From positions 3,872,001-3,936,000 of the forward strand of contig CBDETY010000003.1 of assembly GCA_965243025.1 (NCBI GenBank): DNA of 64,000 bases, written 5' to 3'. This stretch comes from Candidatus Latescibacterota bacterium (GTDB taxonomy: Bacteria > Latescibacterota > UBA2968 > UBA8231). Shown here piece after piece: positions 53,127-60,501 of the stretch; the first letter of the stretch is position 1, and every line of letters begins with the position of its first letter. The notes below the pieces were generated by a model. The model was not told the DNA's origin, did not search any database, and saw only the letters and a program-made list of their open reading frames with translations. The translations under genes and the position numbers were made by a program.

Positions 53127-53472
53127 CGGGCGGCGTCTCCGGTCCCGGCGCGGGGGCGGCGTTCTTCCATGACGGGGAACATAACCATCCCGGAGCCCGC
53201 CCGGGAACAGAAAACCCGCCTCTTCTTCCCCCTGCCCGAAGACTGGTTGCCGCCCCGGGGTCTTCCCGCCCTGGTCTGCAAACCGGTCGTCTCCGGTTCG
53301 ACAGTGCGTCGGCTGTCTTCGGCAGCATTGCCCGCCCTCGCCTGCAGAGCAACCTTATCCGGGCTGTCTGGATGACTTTCCACCGATGATTTCGAGTCCT
53401 TTGCGTTTTCCCCAAACCGCATTCGAGTGGGGAGAATTCGACGTGACGGAAACCCGAGTTGACGAGACAACC

Positions 53473-55710
53473 ATGACGCGGACACGACGATCTCCCCTCT
53501 GGATGCCGCTTCTCTGCTGCCTCGCCGCGGCTCCGGGGTGCTCGCCGGACCCGGACGGGGATACAGCGGCGGAAGGCACCCGCGCCATGGCCGAGCGCCT
53601 CGAAGCGATCGCCGCCGGCGTCGACCCGGAGGCCAACCCCTACGCCAACGGGGTCCGGGTCGAGCACTTCCGCCGGCGGCTGGACAGCCTGCGGACCTCC
53701 GCAGCCGCAGAGGAGCCCCCCCCTGAGCCGATCCTGCGCGCCCGTTTCACCCTCGCCAACGAACTGCTCCTCGACGGACAGTCCGCGGAGGCGGCCCGGG
53801 AGTTCGAAGCCCTGCTGCAGGACGCCGAGAAGCCAGGCAACCGACACAACATCCGCATCCTCCTCGGTCTGACCTGGCTGCGCCTCGGGGAGCAGGAGAA
53901 CTGCGTGGTGCGGCACACCATAGACTCCTGTCTTATGCCCGTAGGCGGCTCGGGGGTGCACCTCATCGAGCGCGGCTCGCGCGGGGCCGTGCGCGAGTTC
54001 GGGAAGGTGCTGGAGCGCAACCCCAGGGACCTGTCCGCCCGCTGGCTGCTCAACATCGCCTACATGACCCTCGGGGAGCACCCCGGAAAGGTGCCCCCCC
54101 GGCACCTGATCCCGGAAGAGGCCTTCGCGTCGGACTACGACATCGGGCAGTTCCGCGACGTCGCCCCCGCCCTCGGCCTCGACCTGGTGGGCCTGGCGGG
54201 GGGCGGCATCATGGAGGACTTCGACGGGGACGGCCACCTCGACGTCTTCGCCACCTCCTGGGGGCTGCGCGACCAGGTGCGTTACTTCCGCAACGGGGGC
54301 GACGGCTCCTTCTCGGACCTGACCGAAGCGGCCGGACTGCTCGGCATCGTCGGGGGCCTCAACGCCCTGCAGACCGACTACGACAACGACGGCTGGGCCG
54401 ACCTGCTGGTGCTGCGCGGGGCCTGGCTGAACCGCCCTCCGGCTACCGACGGGGGGCGCCATCCCAACTCCCTGCTGCGCAACCTGGACGGGGTGGAGTT
54501 CGCCGACGTCACCGCCGAAGCCGGGCTGCTGAGCTTCCACCCGACGCAGACCGCGGCCTGGGGGGACTGCGACAACGACGGCTGGCTCGACCTCTACATC
54601 GGCAACGAGAGCCTGGGAACAGACAGGCATCCCAACGAGCTCTACCTCAACGCCCGGGACGGCGCCTTCCGGAACGCGGCGGCGGCCAGCGGAGTCGCCC
54701 TGGAGGGGTACGTCAAAGGAGTGGTCTGGGGGGACTACGACAACGACGGGCGGCTCGACCTCTACGTGTCGCGCCTGCTCGAGGAGGAGCCGAACATCCT
54801 GTTCCGCAACCGCGCCGGAGACTCCGGGCCTCCCCGCTTCGACGACGTCACCGAGGCCGCCGGCGTCCCGGGTCCGGCCTACAGCTTCCCCGCCTGGTTC
54901 TGGGACTACGACAACGACGGCTGGCTCGACCTGTTCGTCTCGGGGTACCGGGCCCGCGCTTCCGAGGTGGCCGCCGACTACCTCGGGATTCCCCACTACG
55001 GGGAGCTTCCCCGCCTTTACCGCAACAACCGCGACGGCAGCTTTGCCGACCTCACCCGGGAGGCCCGCCTAGACAAGCCCCTGCTGACCATGGGCAGCAA
55101 CTTCGGCGACCTCGACAACGACGGCTGGCTCGACTGCTACATCGGCACCGGGTCGCCGGGGCTGACGTCGCTGATGCCGAACCGGATGTTCCGCAATGCC
55201 GGGGGCCGCTTCTTCCAGGACGTGACCACGTCTGGGGGATTCGGCCACATACAGAAGGGGCACGGGGTCGCCTTCGGGGACGCCGACCACGACGGCGACC
55301 AGGACGTGTACGCGACCATGGGGGGCGCCTACGCCGGCGACGTGTACCAGAACATCCTGTTCGAGAACCCCGGGCACGGGAACCGCTGGCTCAAGCTGAA
55401 GCTCGTCGGGGTGCGCTCCAACCGGGCGGGGATCGGGGCGCGCATCAAGGTTACGGTCGACACCGGGGAGGGGGAGCGTCAGATCCACGCCACCGTCGGC
55501 AGCGGCGGCAGCTTCGGAGCCTCGAGCTTCCGCAAGGAGATCGGCCTCGGGCAGGCGAGCGCCATCCGGTCGCTGGAGGTCTACTGGCCGGCCAGCGGCG
55601 AGCGCCAGCTGTTCGAAGAGGTTGAGATGGACCGGGTGCTGCAAATCACCGAGGGAGACCCGGCCCCGCAAGTCCTGCACTACGAGCCCTTCCGCCTGGG
55701 AGCCGGCTGA
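53473..55710 (+). CDS. CRTAC1-like FG-GAP + ASPIC/UnbV protein with N-terminal TPR-like region (probable lipoprotein)
   Basis: Signal peptide with APGC; LRLGEQENC..., D.DNDGWLDL repeats, SNRAGIGARI, EIGLG, VYWP. Confidence 0.88.
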   Translation: MTRTRRSPLWMPLLCCLAAAPGCSPDPDGDTAAEGTRAMAERLEAIAAGVDPEANPYANGVRVEHFRRRLDSLRTSAAAEEPPPEPILRARFTLANELLLDGQSAEAAREFEALLQDAEKPGNRHNIRILLGLTWLRLGEQENCVVRHTIDSCLMPVGGSGVHLIERGSRGAVREFGKVLERNPRDLSARWLLNIAYMTLGEHPGKVPPRHLIPEEAFASDYDIGQFRDVAPALGLDLVGLAGGGIMEDFDGDGHLDVFATSWGLRDQVRYFRNGGDGSFSDLTEAAGLLGIVGGLNALQTDYDNDGWADLLVLRGAWLNRPPATDGGRHPNSLLRNLDGVEFADVTAEAGLLSFHPTQTAAWGDCDNDGWLDLYIGNESLGTDRHPNELYLNARDGAFRNAAAASGVALEGYVKGVVWGDYDNDGRLDLYVSRLLEEEPNILFRNRAGDSGPPRFDDVTEAAGVPGPAYSFPAWFWDYDNDGWLDLFVSGYRARASEVAADYLGIPHYGELPRLYRNNRDGSFADLTREARLDKPLLTMGSNFGDLDNDGWLDCYIGTGSPGLTSLMPNRMFRNAGGRFFQDVTTSGGFGHIQKGHGVAFGDADHDGDQDVYATMGGAYAGDVYQNILFENPGHGNRWLKLKLVGVRSNRAGIGARIKVTVDTGEGERQIHATVGSGGSFGASSFRKEIGLGQASAIRSLEVYWPASGERQLFEEVEMDRVLQITEGDPAPQVLHYEPFRLGAG

Positions 55711-55852: not shown

Positions 55853-56860
55853 CTAATCCATCTCCAGCGAGGCCTTGATCCGCCCCCAGGAAACCGACTC
55901 GACCGCGCTGTTTTGCGGCCCGGCGCCGGCCGGCAACAGCAGTCCGTCGAGAAAGTAATCGGCGGCAAAACTTTCTATGTCCCAGAAAACTTCACGATCG
56001 GATGCCATGACCTGGACTTCCGGTGCCAACTGGGCAGTAGAATTCCTCCCCTTGTCCGCATCATACACGCCAATCGCGAAGCCGATGATCTTGCCTGCGC
56101 TCAGATCGCTTGGGGCAGACCCGTCGGGACTGGTCAGGTCTTCCCTGTGGTCGAACGGCGTGATGTACAGCTCGATTGTCCAGATGACGGGCGCTTCTCC
56201 GGCTACGCCGCCGCCGGCCTCCGCGTAGGGGGGCAGGGTCATCCAGGAAAAGGCCCCCGTCATATATCTGGACTGCCACTCATCCAAAGTCGGTCCACTG
56301 GGAGTTTGGGAAATGGCCTCATATGACTGAGCCTCCCCGGTAATCTCCAGGAATCTCCCCGGTCTGACAGGAACTGCCAGGTCACGCCCGGGACCGCCGC
56401 TGTGATCTCCGTCGATTCCGAGGACAATACCGTCGTTATATCCACCAAGGAATACCAAATTATCCTTACCAGACTCTATCCAATTGTCCACATCGTAGGT
56501 GTGGGTATTTACGTATCTGTCATCGGTGGCCACGAAGGCTACATAGAGGCGAGCCGGCTCATCGTGCCAGGCCAGCCAGATCCGGAAGTCCAAGTCGGCC
56601 GGATCATGCGTGGATTCCCTGAACTCGTCCATGAAATCCACCAAGCTCAGGGCAGGCTCACCGATCAGATCGAACCACTCCTCCACCGAGCCGTCGTGGA
56701 GCTGAATCTCTGAAAGCATCTCGTCGGTCAACTCCGCGAACGGGAAGACCCGACTGCCGACGTGGGCTTCTGCCTGGTCAGCCAGGCCGGCGGACAGGGC
56801 CGACCCGACGAGCAGGCCGAGGGCCATGCGCCAGTGATTCCTGCTGAAAAAAAAGGACAT
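55853..56860 (-). CDS. Secreted DOMON/CBM9-like protein with C-terminal SAVESVSWGRIKAS tag
   Basis: Signal peptide ending AEA; DG...EW, WLAW....LYV, DGDHSGG, W..E..I, IIGF.I.V.D.D. Confidence 0.7.
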   Translation of the reverse strand: MSFFFSRNHWRMALGLLVGSALSAGLADQAEAHVGSRVFPFAELTDEMLSEIQLHDGSVEEWFDLIGEPALSLVDFMDEFRESTHDPADLDFRIWLAWHDEPARLYVAFVATDDRYVNTHTYDVDNWIESGKDNLVFLGGYNDGIVLGIDGDHSGGPGRDLAVPVRPGRFLEITGEAQSYEAISQTPSGPTLDEWQSRYMTGAFSWMTLPPYAEAGGGVAGEAPVIWTIELYITPFDHREDLTSPDGSAPSDLSAGKIIGFAIGVYDADKGRNSTAQLAPEVQVMASDREVFWDIESFAADYFLDGLLLPAGAGPQNSAVESVSWGRIKASLEMD

Positions 56861-56884
56861 CTGTTTTCCTTCCTCCTCTTCAGG

Positions 56885-56934
56885 AAAAACAAGGGCGAGG
56901 ACCCATCCCCCTGAAGGGGACGGAGCCCTCGTCC
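56885..56934 (-). terminator. Rho-independent terminator between the peptide gene and the WGRIK gene
   Basis: Minus-strand RNA CGAGGGC(U)CCGUCCCC-UUCAG-GGGGAUGGGUCCUCG followed by UUGUUUUU; G-U pairs favour the minus strand; a second hairpin lies at 56941-56962. Confidence 0.7.
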
Positions 56935-56969
56935 TGGAATTCCGCGTCAGCGAAAACGCGGAAGGATGC

Positions 56970-57225
56970 TCAGTTCCTGCACTCGCAGTACCAAGCCCCT
57001 GGGCCGGGGAGGTCGCGAACCCGGTAATCGTCGTGCCAAAGCCGGGAGCAGTTATATGCGCACGTTCCGTCCGCCTCGCTGTTCGTGTAGGCGTACATGG
57101 TGTGGCCGTGGTGCCAAGGAGGTACTCGATTCGGCCTCCACCCAGGACACGCCTCCGGTGGTGAGCAGGAACCCCCGCCAGAACGCCAGGACGGCCTTCA
57201 TGCTCTGCTTCAACTGATTTCCCAT
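56970..57225 (-). pseudogene. Cryptic secreted Cys-containing mini-protein (signal peptide + CxxxC...CxC), frameshifted or miscalled
   Basis: RBS AAAGGGGG and ATG at 57225 give MGNQLKQSMKAVLAFWRGFLLTTGGVSWVEA; the +1 frame continues PWHHGHTMYAYTNSEADGTCAYNCSRLWHDDYRVRDLPGPGAWYCECRN* (stop 56970-56972). Confidence 0.6.
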
Positions 57226-57285
57226 TGCTGCCCCCTTTGTTTTCGGGGTCGCGCCTGTTCGCTACCCCCGTTCACCAAAAAGAGA

Positions 57286-57302
57286 TGCAAATGGCATGCC
57301 TG
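57286..57302 (-). promoter_or_regulatory. sigma54 -24/-12 promoter
   Basis: CAGGCATGCCATTTGCA has exact GG-N10-GC spacing, about 60 bp upstream of ATG 57225. Confidence 0.7.
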
Positions 57303-57342
57303 TACCTGGCCGGCGGCTCCATCAGTGGTGTCCGTGATGACG

Positions 57343-57355
57343 TAACCTGTTGTTT
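57343..57355 (-). promoter_or_regulatory. IHF-binding site
   Basis: AAACAACAGGTTA, one mismatch to WATCARNNNNTTR, with adjacent A/T tracts at 57360-57390; lies between UAS and -24/-12. Confidence 0.55.
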
Positions 57356-57434
57356 TCCTGTTTTTTGAACACCTGTTTTTTTTTATTTCGACGACAAAAA
57401 GCTCGCCCTCGCCGCCACCGGCTTCCCGGTACCG

Positions 57435-57490
57435 TCGTATTTAATACGATTTTGTCGTATTTAATACGATCCGGCCGTATTTAATACGAT
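57435..57490. repeat. Three tandem palindromic operators (T)CGTATT-T-AATACGA at 20-bp period; probable bEBP enhancer (UAS)
   Basis: CGTATTTAATACGAT starts at 57436, 57456 and 57476; an extra half site CGTATT lies at 57494. Confidence 0.85.
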
Positions 57491-57615
57491 TTCCGTATTG
57501 CCGCGGCCCGGCTGAGGACTGCTTGCTTCTGCAAAATCAGCTTCCGTCCCGAATTTGCGTGTCCCCGGATGGATTGATATGATTTTACGAATACAGTTTT
57601 CATACTTGGGTAAAC

Positions 57616-57831
57616 ATGCGAATTTCTGAACGAGGACAAATCACCATTCCCAAGCGACTGAGAGATCGCTTCGGAATGAATCCCGACGTCGAAGTCGAGA
57701 TCACGCCGACAGAGCACGGCCTGCTCATTCAAAAACGGACCGCAGCGAGGCACCCTGTCGAGCGCGTGTACGCCATCCTGGGAAGCGGCGCAAGCACCGA
57801 CGATTACATCGAGGAAATCCGTGGGAGATGA
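57616..57831 (+). CDS. AbrB/MazE/SpoVT family antitoxin
   Basis: MRISERGQITIPKRLRDRFG swapped-hairpin motif; ATGA coupling to the PIN gene. Confidence 0.9.
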   Translation: MRISERGQITIPKRLRDRFGMNPDVEVEITPTEHGLLIQKRTAARHPVERVYAILGSGASTDDYIEEIRGR

Positions 57832-58223
57832 TCACCGCGGTCGATACGAGTGTCCTGTTGGACGTGTTTCTCCCCGACGAGCGTCACGGCCCCCGGTCGA
57901 AGGAATTGCTGCGGGACGCCTATGACAGGGGGGCCATTTTCATCTGTGAGGTGGTCTATGCGGAACTCGTTCCCGCGTTCGATGACCGGGCAAAGCTCGA
58001 CGGAGCGCTGCGGGAGATCAGCGCTGCGATTTCACCCATCGATACCGATATTGCTTTCGAAGCCGGGCATCGCTGGTCTCGCTACCGGCAGGCCGGCGGG
58101 TCCAGGAATCGGATAATCACGGATTTTCTGATCGGCGCCCACGCGGTTGTAAAAGCCGAAACTTTTCTCACACGGGACCGCGGCTTCTACTCGACCTACT
58201 TTCCGGAATTGCATAGAGGGTGA
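57828..58223 (+). CDS. vapC: PIN-domain VapC toxin
   Basis: VDTSVL, VYAEL, DFLIGAHA, LTRD acidic tetrad. Confidence 0.9.
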   Translation: MITAVDTSVLLDVFLPDERHGPRSKELLRDAYDRGAIFICEVVYAELVPAFDDRAKLDGALREISAAISPIDTDIAFEAGHRWSRYRQAGGSRNRIITDFLIGAHAVVKAETFLTRDRGFYSTYFPELHRG

Positions 58224-58355: not shown

Positions 58356-59321
58356 TCACTTGGAGTCCGGCACACCGGATTCCCCGCTACGGCCTATCTG
58401 CGCCTTGACCGCCCCCCAGGCCGCGGCTCGAATCGCGCTGGCCGCCTCCGCGGAAATCCAGGCCGGGTAGATCGCGTCCGTCGAGGTCTGGGTCAGGTTG
58501 ACGGGGTTCGAGCCATCGGCATCCATCACGTAGATGTCGTAGTCGCCGTCCCGGTTCGAGGCGAAGGCGATCCGGGTCCCGTCCGGGGACCAGGCGGGCC
58601 AGTAGTCGGCGTACGCCTGGTTGCGGGTGATATCGACCGGGTTCGAGCCGTCCGCATTCATCGTGAAGATGTCTATGTCCCCCCCGTTGCGGCGGGAGGT
58701 GAAGGCGATAACGGAACCGTCGGGGGACCAGGCGGGACGGGAGTCCGCGGCGGGATCGTTGGTCAGGTTGACGGGGTTCGAGCCGTCCGGCCCAATCGTG
58801 TAGACCTCGAGATTGCCGTCTCGCAGGGAGTGGAAGGCGATGCGGTTGCCGTCGGGAGACCAGGCGGGATAGGCGTCTTCCTCGGGGTGGCGGGTGACGT
58901 TCAACAGGTTCGTGCCCCCGGCTTCGATCGTGAAGATGTTGAGGGGGCCGTCGAAGTCGGAGGTGACCGCGATGCGGCTGCCGTCGGGAGACCAGGATGC
59001 CAGTCCGAAGCGATGGTGGGTGTCGGTGACGTTGACCAGGTTGGAGCCGTCGACCGACATGACCCAGAGGTTCTGGAAGCCGCTGCGGTTGGAAGCAAAC
59101 ACGAACTTCGTGCCGTCGGCAGTCACCGCCGGCTCCCAGTCCCGGGCCGGGTTGTTGGTGAGGTTGACGGGGTTGGATCCGTCCTCCTCCATCACGTAGA
59201 TCTCGACGTTGCCGTCGTCGCGGTCGGTGGCGAAGGCGATCTTGCAGTCGCAGGCGGCGCCGCTCCGTTGCGCTGTCAGAGCTGCCGCCAGCGCGGCGAT
59301 CAGCAGGGGGGATCTGCCCAT
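58356..59321 (-). CDS. Secreted TolB-like (PD40) beta-propeller with C-terminal SAIRAAAWGAVKAQ tag
   Basis: Signal peptide; about 6 repeats of PAWSPDG.RIAF.S.RDG..IY.M..DGSNP.NLT. Confidence 0.88.
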   Translation of the reverse strand: MGRSPLLIAALAAALTAQRSGAACDCKIAFATDRDDGNVEIYVMEEDGSNPVNLTNNPARDWEPAVTADGTKFVFASNRSGFQNLWVMSVDGSNLVNVTDTHHRFGLASWSPDGSRIAVTSDFDGPLNIFTIEAGGTNLLNVTRHPEEDAYPAWSPDGNRIAFHSLRDGNLEVYTIGPDGSNPVNLTNDPAADSRPAWSPDGSVIAFTSRRNGGDIDIFTMNADGSNPVDITRNQAYADYWPAWSPDGTRIAFASNRDGDYDIYVMDADGSNPVNLTQTSTDAIYPAWISAEAASAIRAAAWGAVKAQIGRSGESGVPDSK

Positions 59322-59376
59322 GGCGAGCTCCTGTGAATGACCGGCGCCCGCGGAAGGCCGCGGGAGCCGGCCGCGT

Positions 59377-60501
59377 TCAGACGCGGTTGTCCTCGATGTA
59401 GTCCCAGTCCAGCTCGAAGCCAAGCCCCGGTTTCTGCGAGACGATGACGTTCCCCTCGCCGTCGAAGGGATCGCAGATCTCCTTCATGTACGGAGGCGGC
59501 ACCTCGTAGGCCTCGTCGTGGCCGGGGGCGAACAGCCCGCGCTCGAAGTACTCGATGGTGTCGACGTTCGTCGAGGCGTAGATGTGCAGGTTGCCCCAGC
59601 CGCCGCCGTGGATCGTCGCCCGCATACCGAACGACTCGTACAGGGCCACCGATTTCCTGCAGCCGGTGATGCCGTTGAAGTTGACCTCGGTGCGCCCCAT
59701 GTCCGCCGCCTTCCTGACGATCCACTCGGTGCGGCTGTACGGCAGGTTGCCGAGCTGCTCGGGGGCGCAGACCGGCACCTCGAGGTTTTCGGTGAGGCGG
59801 ATGTAGGGTTCGATGTTGTTCTCCGGCATCGGGCTCTCGAACCAGAAGAAGTCGAGCCCGGCGATCTCCCTGCCGACGTAGAGCGCCTGCTCGTAGTTGT
59901 AGATGCCGGCCTGGTCGAGCATCAGGACGATGTCGCCGCCGACGCGCTCCCGCACCGCCTCGCAGACCTCGACGTCGTGCCGGGGAAAGGCGGGGTTGCG
60001 GGGGGCCGGCTCCATCCTGACCGGGTCGTACCACATGTAGGCGTGAATCTTGTAGGCGGTGTACCCCTTTCTCACGCACTCCTCGGCGTGGTCGGCGAAA
60101 ACCTCCGGGGAGCCCATGTTCGGGTAGGAGCTGGCATAGCACTTCAGCCTGTCGCGGTAGCCGCCGAGCAGCTTGTGCACCGGCTGCTCGAGGCAGCGGC
60201 CGGCGAAGTCCCACAGCAGCATGTCGAGCAGCATGTTGCCGCCGCTCAGCTGCCAGAGCTGCTCGCGGTCCATCGGGTCGCGGCCGATGGCGAGGGCCTC
60301 GATCCAGGGGGGCAGGCCGCCGCCGCGTGGAAACCAGTAGCCGCTGACCCCGGTGTCGGTCTCCAGCTCGAACAGCGTCGTCGCGGTCTCTTCGGGCTCG
60401 GTCCGCAGCAGCTCCAGCGGGTAGATCGAGTACCCGTACTTCCCCTGGTAGCGGCGCGACATGGTTTTGAAGCGGTGCTGCTTCACAGCGGTGATCTTCA
60501 T
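59377..60501 (-). CDS. Mandelate racemase/muconate lactonizing enzyme family (enolase superfamily)
   Basis: DMLLWD..G...QPVHKLLGG, YKIH, LMLD, WFESP, APE, KPGLG; RBS ggaggag. Confidence 0.9.
   Translation of the reverse strand: MKITAVKQHRFKTMSRRYQGKYGYSIYPLELLRTEPEETATTLFELETDTGVSGYWFPRGGGLPPWIEALAIGRDPMDREQLWQLSGGNMLLDMLLWDFAGRCLEQPVHKLLGGYRDRLKCYASSYPNMGSPEVFADHAEECVRKGYTAYKIHAYMWYDPVRMEPAPRNPAFPRHDVEVCEAVRERVGGDIVLMLDQAGIYNYEQALYVGREIAGLDFFWFESPMPENNIEPYIRLTENLEVPVCAPEQLGNLPYSRTEWIVRKAADMGRTEVNFNGITGCRKSVALYESFGMRATIHGGGWGNLHIYASTNVDTIEYFERGLFAPGHDEAYEVPPPYMKEICDPFDGEGNVIVSQKPGLGFELDWDYIEDNRV

Follow-up and report, generated by a model that had tools for sequence, protein, structure and literature searches.

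Two reading frames of a Latescibacterota genome as halves of one gene for a predicted exported His/Cys mini-protein

Small secreted proteins of about 50 residues in which exactly four scaffold cysteines, spaced CxxxC...CxC, tie a helix to a beta-sheet form the two-disulfide class of the cysteine-stabilised alpha/beta fold (2ds-CS-alpha/beta), with the centipede toxins SsTx and Sm2a as solved examples, and passages of two papers describe this fold as widespread in prokaryotes (PMC7232367 and PMC12284004, citing Dash et al. 2019). Bacterial cis-defensins have, behind a signal peptide, a small helix/sheet domain that is stabilised by Cys and includes CxxxC and CxC; according to sections of PMC11561630 they comprise five classes, all with three disulfides (C...CxxxC...C...CxC; xanthusin-1 and actifensin are examples), and the 74 bacterial defensin peptides reported there come from Proteobacteria, one Acidobacterium and one Actinobacterium. 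Metal binding is described, in parts of PMC7557933, for His-rich plant defensins, which share with the copper-binding domain of APP (PDB 2fkl, 1owt) a disulfide-stabilised helix-on-sheet scaffold and a metal bound through His. Here we compare with these systems a locus on a 64,000-nucleotide stretch of a Candidatus Latescibacterota bacterium (assembly GCA_965243025.1, contig CBDETY010000003.1, positions 3,872,001 to 3,936,000; hereafter the window), where a small gene for a predicted exported His/Cys mini-protein lies broken across two reading frames, behind a sigma-54-type promoter element and ahead of a gene for a CBM9/DOMON-like protein. All features of the mini-protein locus are on the minus strand, and positions are those of the window.

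A small gene divided between two frames

According to a preliminary description of this DNA, made from its letters alone, a ribosome-binding site and the ATG at 57225 open a signal-like frame that runs to 57052, a Cys-bearing neighbouring frame stops just ahead of hairpins, and a net +1 shift near 57115-57135 joins the two into a secreted CxxxC...CxC protein of about 85 amino acids. All of these elements were recovered. The ATG opens a frame of 57 codons (MGNQLKQSMKAVLAFWRGFLLTTGGVSWVEAESSTS..., or in a longer reading MGNQLKQSMKAVLAFWRGFLLTTGGVSWVEAESSTSLAPRPHH...) with its stop at 57052, and the neighbouring frame, open from about 57195, reads ...PPWHHGHTMYAYTNSEADGTCAYNCSRLWHDDYRVRDLPGPGAWYCECRN to the TGA at 56970-56972. 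An intact orthologue of 84 residues, P0007, spans both frames: its residues 1-36 agree with the first frame at 32 of 36 positions and its residues 36-84 with the second at 46 of 49, and the second frame holds every residue that is invariant in the mature family (H39, C55, C59, H64, C80 and C82, in P0007 numbering, which we use throughout). The signal peptide, assigned by eye together with its cleavage site, has a K/R-rich start and a 15-residue hydrophobic stretch followed by VEA. We conclude from these comparisons that the two frames are the halves of one real gene, the predicted product of which is a small exported His/Cys protein. A gene invisible to open-reading-frame callers had in this way been recovered from frame logic alone, the frameshift having been placed only a few bases off.

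Two other ways of reading the frames were considered and rejected. Programmed +1 frameshifting does not agree with the single frame found in the orthologue and in all paralogues, and there is no conserved slippery or stop-codon context. The earliest common start codon of the second frame, the ATG at 57098, would open a 42-codon open reading frame of its own; this codon is GTG (Val) in the intact allele, it has no ribosome-binding site, and the product would have no signal peptide.

The stretch is present in sequencing runs of 10 studies, and those with readable labels are sponge or marine metagenomes; no RNA run was listed among them. For the comparison of alleles we used the Logan contigs of four runs from four studies (X1, X2, X6 and X7). 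The spanning contigs of X1 (depth 6), possibly the very sample from which the window was assembled, and of X2 (depth 12), which belong to separate studies with separate organism labels, show 0 differences from the window between 56803 and 57600. In X6 and X7 the spanning contigs have four differences from the window in common: the base at 57116 is left out, which restores a single frame and confirms the anticipated shift; the base at 57168 is left out; a G is added after 57184; and a T>C exchange at 57098 replaces the Met of HTMYAY by the Val that P0007 also has. Compared with the intact allele the window thus lacks a base beside 57184 and has an extra one at 57168, and reads AFWRGF instead of AVLAGV, which puts an Arg into the hydrophobic core of its signal peptide. 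The broken and the intact alleles are both natural, the first being found in two studies and the second in two others.

Between the two origins that had been proposed for the break, pseudogenisation or an assembly indel, the evidence favours a frameshift-inactivated, strain-level pseudogene allele. An error of sequencing or assembly, with the gene intact in the organism, would account for the excess of indels between the window and the X7 contig (5 indels and only 2 substitutions in 798 nt, unusual for natural divergence) and for the frameshifted family members seen in other assemblies as well (P0025, P0027), and the comparison is one of contigs. Against an error stand the contigs of X1 and X2, built independently from reads of different studies and reproducing the window exactly, the presence of 0.99 of the sampled words in three further runs (X3-X5), and the position of the extra T outside any long homopolymer. 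Moreover, position 63, a Gly in 22 of 23 family members, is a Trp in this orthologue lineage, P0007 included; this change at a nearly invariant site, common to the broken allele and the intact orthologue, indicates a lineage that was diverging anyway, and a second assembly holds an orthologue broken at another place (P0025); both are further signs of decay in this lineage. We regard an error as having only a very slight probability. In the favoured pseudogene, the extra T would end the frame past the signal peptide and the indel pair would damage the signal peptide itself, so that no functional mini-protein would be expected from the window copy, with the six other loci of the genome remaining intact.

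As a separate observation, the frameshifted copies from other assemblies (P0025, P0027, P0149 and P0150) all differ in the place of the break, which may reflect frequent decay in the family or indel errors in the long-read assemblies of these symbionts.

The mini-protein family, its predicted fold and its function

Translated in six frames and searched with the Cys peptide, the own genome gave four further places (E 1e-19, 2e-14, 2e-14 and 0.009), each a single open reading frame of 80-83 codons with signal peptide, W-H-x-H and the Cys motifs in one frame. The genome holds seven loci (the window, L002, L003, L004, L005, L050 and C3:120035-120259) and the sister genome G103 holds six. L003 and L004 are inverted duplicates of 3.07 kb with 99.7% identity, and the duplicated unit contains one cassette and no more, from the palindromes through small gene and hairpin to the CBM9-like gene. 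When P0001 was used as query against 5.8 billion protein clusters, 25 proteins were obtained at E <= 0.01, nearly all of 81-85 amino acids and none with a Pfam domain or a name, and a profile search of 1.84 billion representatives gave 11 clusters at E <= 0.001, the distant members of which retain W-x-H-x-H ... C-A-Y-x-C ... G-H ... C-x-C. Among 168 species genomes of the phylum, with at most 32 first-look candidates scored per genome, the profile matched two, the window's genome and one of its two congeners. Pfam and NCBIfam offered no family for the mini-protein at default thresholds, and at lenient ones gave stray weak matches only (an Fpg-type match for P0003 at E 0.001-0.03 and DUF6153 in 5 of 23 sequences at E >= 0.02); the mature part of P0001 had no usable match in the protein atlas. 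Two matches confirmed out of 71 pattern matches in a search of genome contigs, in Streptoalloteichus and in a Clostridia metagenome-assembled genome, are short and partial and were set aside as spurious.

Conservation was read from a clean alignment of 23 sequences (A2), with a broader profile (A4) built alongside it. W37, H39, A51, C55, C59, H64, C80 and C82 are invariant in A2, and H38, H41, G53, G63, P75 and W78 nearly so; in 17 divergent members the sole invariant mature positions are H39, H64 and the four Cys. The preliminary description had asked for homologues that keep these four Cys, and all 23 clean sequences do; together with the paralogous loci and the database homologues, this goes well beyond chance. 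Position 41 is His in 21 of the 23 and Cys in the other 2. A fifth Cys, next to the His cluster in every case, occupies position 36 in 7 sequences and position 40 in 7 others. When cut by eye after VEA or xA, the mature peptides have 45-58 residues, among them 4-7 His and 4-7 Cys; 26 of 29 carry a net negative charge, in agreement with the slightly acidic, His-bearing mature part described beforehand. Column identity is highest in the signal peptide (0.84), followed by strand 1 (0.82) and the helix (0.76), and falls to 0.41 in the loop 65-74; the ratio of non-synonymous to synonymous substitution (dN/dS) ranges from 0.37 to 1.0 across 7 paralogue/orthologue pairs.

The compact fold that had been expected was predicted by AlphaFold2 from A2, with pLDDT of 82-91 (means over 10-residue blocks) for residues 41-84. 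The model has a beta-alpha-beta-beta order (strand 39-44, helix 48-61, strand 66-71 and strand 77-83), in which C55 and C59 of the CxxxC motif lie on the helix and C80 and C82 of the CxC motif on the last strand. Searched with Foldseek against the PDB, this model gave nothing at E <= 0.1 (best E 0.13), and a second look added MOPD-1 (6.2), the APP copper-binding domain (4.9, with a root-mean-square deviation of 2.2 A for 49 residues) and PhD1, a petunia defensin (3.6). In sequence searches of the PDB the top match of the A2 profile was SsTx (5x0s, E 0.1), followed by the zinc-binding UBR box of UBR4 (E 0.4), and that of the A4 profile was Sm2a (6bl9, E 0.31); both toxins align in register on all four Cys, at E-values that are not significant. 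The likenesses to two-disulfide CS-alpha/beta toxins, MVL (Microcystis viridis lectin), the APP copper domain and defensins are all weak, and none outranks the others.

Within these limits the closest known kind would be the two-disulfide CS-alpha/beta class. By alignment and model the mini-protein has four Cys on a helix and a beta-sheet, as in the definition of the class given in a passage of PMC7232367, and it would be an acidic, His-bearing and sigma-54-controlled variant. It differs from SsTx and Sm2a in an additional N-terminal strand with W-H-H-x-H, in the invariant His after the helix and in the frequent fifth Cys, as well as in its acidic charge, its occurrence in a sponge symbiont, its sigma-54-type promoter and its place ahead of CBM9-like genes. 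The cis-defensin label that had also been suggested was not established: the mini-protein has four invariant Cys and a fifth that is optional and mobile, in place of the six-Cys, three-disulfide framework, and no sequence or structure match to cis-defensins rose above background.

We propose that an intact gene would give a precursor of 83-84 amino acids in which a Sec-type signal peptide precedes a mature mini-protein of some 52 residues. Once outside the cytoplasm, its four Cys would staple the helix to the sheet, with C55-C80 and C59-C82 as probable pairs by analogy with two-disulfide CS-alpha/beta proteins, and the His cluster (W-H-H-x-H plus H64, often with the extra Cys nearby) would bind a metal ion, so that the product would be a small exported factor that binds or handles metal and is made together with CBM9-like proteins. 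The metal site is favoured because H39 and H64 are as invariant as the Cys, position 41 exchanges His for Cys, the fifth Cys lies near the His and the peptides are acidic. Effector, lectin and metal-binding peptide had been offered side by side in the preliminary description; the last of these three options is the one towards which the invariant His and the His-to-Cys exchange point. In the APP copper domain and the His-rich defensins a His-bound metal is described, whereas for the mini-protein it is deduced from conservation.

The same Cys pattern can be read as that of a two-disulfide CS-alpha/beta effector, defensin- or toxin-like, acting against microbes or host cells, in which the His would be incidental. 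This would fit the invariant CxxxC...CxC modelled on helix and last strand, the two centipede toxins at the top of the two profile searches, the reported spread of the fold class in prokaryotes (passages of PMC12284004 and PMC7232367), and a multi-copy family with conserved signal peptide, hypervariable loop and dN/dS up to 1.0; the first place in an operon, ahead of a terminator-like hairpin, is also what would be expected of an abundant product. It leaves the invariance of H39 and H64 and the exchange at position 41 unexplained, the toxin matches are not significant, 26 of the 29 mature peptides are acidic, and the framework of three disulfides described for each of the five classes of bacterial defensins in the sections of PMC11561630 is absent. 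Sm2, for which channel activity is also reported to be lacking, and xanthusin-1 are themselves reported not to be antimicrobial in passages of PMC12284004 and PMC11561630. We consider an effector of this kind rather unlikely.

The redox equipment of the organism bears on a second alternative. In the genome, which is 96% complete, no DsbB, VKOR or Thioredoxin_4-type DsbA was detected, and there is one DSBA-family match (C3:2892228-2892749); with so few Dsb-type genes, catalysed disulfide formation is uncertain and a disulfide-free Cys/His cluster becomes possible. The four Cys and the His would then form a metal cluster, and the product would be an exported zinc-finger- or metallothionein-like store or buffer. 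Six invariant potential ligands, the wandering extra Cys and the swap at position 41 are consistent with such a cluster, as are weak matches to zinc-binding UBR boxes (Pfam zf-UBR in 1 of 23 members at E 0.053, besides UBR4), which are not significant. The i/i+4 and j/j+2 spacing of the Cys on helix and strand is nevertheless the classical two-disulfide geometry, export would lead into an oxidising marine setting, and none of the 23 members matched a Pfam bacterial metallothionein at E <= 10, a search in which the HMMER filters drop many weak matches. A disulfide-free store is in our view unlikely, and we retain the cystine-stapled metal-binding protein as the preferred reading.

Promoter, palindromes and hairpin of the cassette

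The regulation of the small gene had been described as dedicated, and several elements speak for this: a sigma-54-type promoter element, an rpoN gene in the genome (E 1e-59), and palindromes in common with a locus that adjoins an activator gene (Table 1). In the element GGCATGccatTTGCA, compared with TGGCAC-N5-TTGCW, the GG and the GC lie 10 nt apart as in that consensus. The same element is found 73-76 nt before the ATG in L002, L050, the 120-kb locus, L047 and L049; a sigma-54-type element has this spacing in 4 of the 7 own loci and in 2 of the 6 loci of G103, where one more locus has it at both 90 and 122 nt. Taken by itself the motif is weak, since a loose sigma-54 pattern has 148 sites genome-wide; the strict pattern TGGCAYR-N4-TTGCH has 21 genome sites, none of them ahead of a family gene, and the looser pattern without the leading T is the one that finds these.

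The palindrome pattern CGTATTWWATACG has only 9 sites in the 6.8-Mb genome, which fall into 4 clusters that all adjoin genes of the CBM9-like family. In the window they lie 123-163 nt upstream of the promoter element, and another cluster (C3:120470-120510) adjoins the start of an activator gene at about 130 bp. This activator, beside a paralogous locus, combines the two domains of the Reg_prop sigma-54 activators; close paralogues of about 1070 amino acids lie beside two other CBM9-like arrays (C3:500237-503506, minus strand, and C3:2828697-2831882, plus strand), and the genome has 20 strong sigma-54 activator genes in all. The Reg_prop activators have an N-terminal beta-propeller region and no obvious signal peptide. 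Reg_prop propellers are the sensor type of glycan-sensing hybrid two-component systems. A literature search on Reg_prop sigma-54 activators found nothing on this system. We infer that the family is switched on by a sigma-54-type promoter in the window and in part of the loci, where a cytoplasmic Reg_prop activator probably binds the palindromes and fires the promoter.

L003, L004 and L005 carry, in place of these elements, 3-5 copies of another palindrome, TCACC-N6-GGTGA, and no sigma-54-type motif by the pattern used. Because these loci combine the second palindrome with the lack of the motif, they suggest a second regulator for the same kind of cassette. This palindrome, at 1100-1200 in L003 and 1080-1195 in L005 (C3:3345853, 458105 and other clusters), occurs in 2-5 copies with 23-24 bp spacing, ahead of small-gene and CBM9-like loci.

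Past the stop codon the two stem-loops fold at -48.4 kcal/mol (z = -5.3; 0 of 200 shuffles fold as well, ViennaRNA). All 12 loci that were folded have a long G+C-rich hairpin separating the small gene from the large one; the stem sequences differ by subfamily, and several are followed by a T-run. A consensus terminator scan returned just a 5-bp fragment of the hairpin, and Rfam over 56700-57700 gave only a chance miRNA match (E 0.47). The small gene is always promoter-proximal, the first of its cassette. The next gene is a CBM9-like one in all 7 own loci, and a motif script scored one within 1.5 kb in 4 of 6 loci of G103. The order of the cassette would accordingly read tandem palindromes, sigma-54 promoter, mini-protein gene, hairpin and one or more CBM9/DOMON-like genes. 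The hairpin probably ends or stabilises most transcripts after the small gene, with some read-through into the CBM9-like gene, which would make the mini-protein the principal product, with less of the CBM9-like protein.

In the runs X2, X6 and X7 the contig depth rises 10- to 30-fold at 56793-56823, in the signal-peptide region of the CBM9-like gene, and at 57444-57505, over the palindromes, because these metagenomes hold many copies of both regions.

Taken as a whole, the explanation that we prefer, a frameshifted allele of the gene for an exported, cystine-stapled, metal-binding mini-protein in a sigma-54 cassette, has in our judgement about an even chance of being right. Several observations weigh against it. 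Every PDB sequence match is non-significant (E >= 0.1), and the scarcity of Dsb-type genes and the indel-rich difference from the X7 contig have been described above. High dN/dS, a hypervariable loop 65-74 and a conserved signal peptide are what one would sooner expect in effectors and toxins than in metal chaperones; three loci have other palindromes and no sigma-54-type motif; and the mini-protein gene stands ahead of only 7 of about 83 CBM9-like genes, so that it is no obligate partner of these.

Table 1. Positions of the features discussed, in window coordinates unless another contig or locus is named
Feature	Position	Strand	Basis and remarks
Three ATCGTATTAAATACG near-palindromes, 20 bp apart; candidate upstream activating sequence	57434..57492	-	Pattern CGTATTWWATACG; putative binding sites
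A-rich tract between palindromes and promoter; possible DNA-bending site	57345..57392	-	Like tracts at the corresponding place in L002 and the 120-kb locus
Sigma-54-type -24/-12 element GGCATGccatTTGCA (GGCATG-N4-TTGCA)	57286..57300	-	75 nt ahead of the ATG
Ribosome-binding site AAAGGGGG	57231-57238	-	Read in the sequence; paralogues carry AAAGGAGG at the equivalent place
Frame 1, codons 1-36: Sec-type signal peptide (ends VEA) and linker ESSTS	57118..57225	-	Identity to P0007, 32/36
Compensated indel pair in the signal peptide	57168..57185	-	Contigs of runs X6 and X7 and comparison with P0007 protein
Frameshift: TT against the single T of the intact allele (TCC-TT-GG vs TCC-TGG, Ser-Trp)	57116..57117	-	Contig comparison; paralogues have ...TS-WHH in one frame
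Frame 2: mature His/Cys domain from W37 (WHHGHT...CAYNC...WH...CEC) to TGA 56970-56972	56970..57116	-	Identity to P0007, 46/49
Two stem-loops past the stop, the second (main stem 56896-56931) G+C-rich and followed by TTGTTTTT; terminator- or attenuator-like	56881..56963	-	Folding
335-aa secreted CBM9/DOMON-like protein	55853..56860	-	Predicted cleavage after AEA, then His; C-terminal tail ..AVESVSWGRIKASLE
1071-aa activator, Reg_prop (E 3e-38) and Sigma54_activat (E 3e-65)	C3:120636-123851 = L052:7637-10852	+	Domain matches
Duplicated cassette pair	C3:3344797-3347862 and C3:6065302-6068367	inverted	99.7% identity

The CBM9/DOMON-like partners and the meaning of the family

The gene beyond the hairpin encodes a protein of 335 amino acids for which Pfam and NCBIfam gave no match and for which the AlphaFold2 model (pLDDT 78.8, pTM 0.79) has the beta-sandwich of the CBM9/DOMON-like superfamily. 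With Foldseek this model matched CBM9 (1i82 at E 4e-8 with TMt 0.73, and 7nwn at 2e-8) and the heme-binding DOMON-like subunits NxrC (7b04, 9e-6) and EbdC (2ivf_C, 9e-4). We found 895 homologues. About 100 matches are in the own genome, of which 83 are near-full-length copies (about 320 amino acids), often in tandem arrays of up to five. The family occurs in 89 of the 168 phylum genomes; within the taxonomic family of the symbiont, 72 of 75 other genomes have it. It carries a DGDHSGG motif, and it is set apart from the rest of the superfamily by its 83-copy expansion, by a conserved C-terminal tail and by an invariant His that is the first residue past the predicted signal-peptide cleavage in 46 of 46 aligned members (A|H-x-G-x-R). 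This N-terminal His is reminiscent of that of the histidine-brace copper proteins. Literature searches found no paper on the tail motif ..AVESVSWGRIKASLE, and nothing on this system under CBM9 in sponge symbionts or small Cys-rich proteins of sponge symbionts.

The modelled carbohydrate-binding-module fold of the neighbours, together with the glycan-sensing type of propeller in the likely activator, would also suit a small MVL-type lectin, binding glycans side by side with the CBM9-like proteins, a label that the preliminary description had put forward. MVL (PDB 1zhq) is a chain of 113 residues, of which residues 1-52 were aligned, whereas the mini-protein is a single domain; the structural match is tied with unrelated domains, MVL is absent among the PDB matches of the A2 and A4 profiles at E <= 10, and the conserved residues of the mini-protein are Cys and His instead of the polar and aromatic set expected of a sugar site. 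The label was not established, and we hold a lectin of this kind to be highly doubtful.

Returning to the metal-binding mini-protein, its most far-reaching form would make it the founder of a group of exported His/Cys mini-metalloproteins, 2ds-CS-alpha/beta-like, that deliver copper or another redox metal to the N-terminal His of their CBM9/DOMON-like partners; the family of about 80 members would then be a histidine-brace-type glycan-oxidising or metal-dependent glycan-binding system of a sponge symbiont, switched by sigma-54 and a propeller activator. This is speculative and, as we judge it, very unlikely. Two complex predictions for the mini-protein (A2, residues 32-84) with the CBM9-like protein (A3, residues 33-335) both scored 0.00, which speaks neither for nor against binding.

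As to the surroundings, a toxin-antitoxin pair lies directly upstream of the palindromes (57616-58223, plus strand), with a MazE/AbrB-type antitoxin of 71 amino acids (E 6e-6) overlapping a PIN-domain toxin of 131 (E 4e-13). The flanking genes encode an FG-GAP/ASPIC-UnbV repeat protein of 774 amino acids (53386-55710, plus strand) and a PD40 beta-propeller protein of 355 (58356-59423, minus strand), both probably exported.

The mini-proteins form a family without a Pfam, NCBIfam or source name that is confined to one sponge-symbiont genus and related metagenome bins. If the fold assignment is true, it would extend the little-known two-disulfide CS-alpha/beta class to a new bacterial phylum and to a form that is acidic, His-bearing and under a defined regulatory circuit, and the prokaryotic lists of Dash et al. 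2019 may bear on the novelty of this. The CBM9-like family probably matters for life within the matrix of the sponge, and the broken and intact alleles of the small gene in different sponge samples provide a natural knock-out for comparison.

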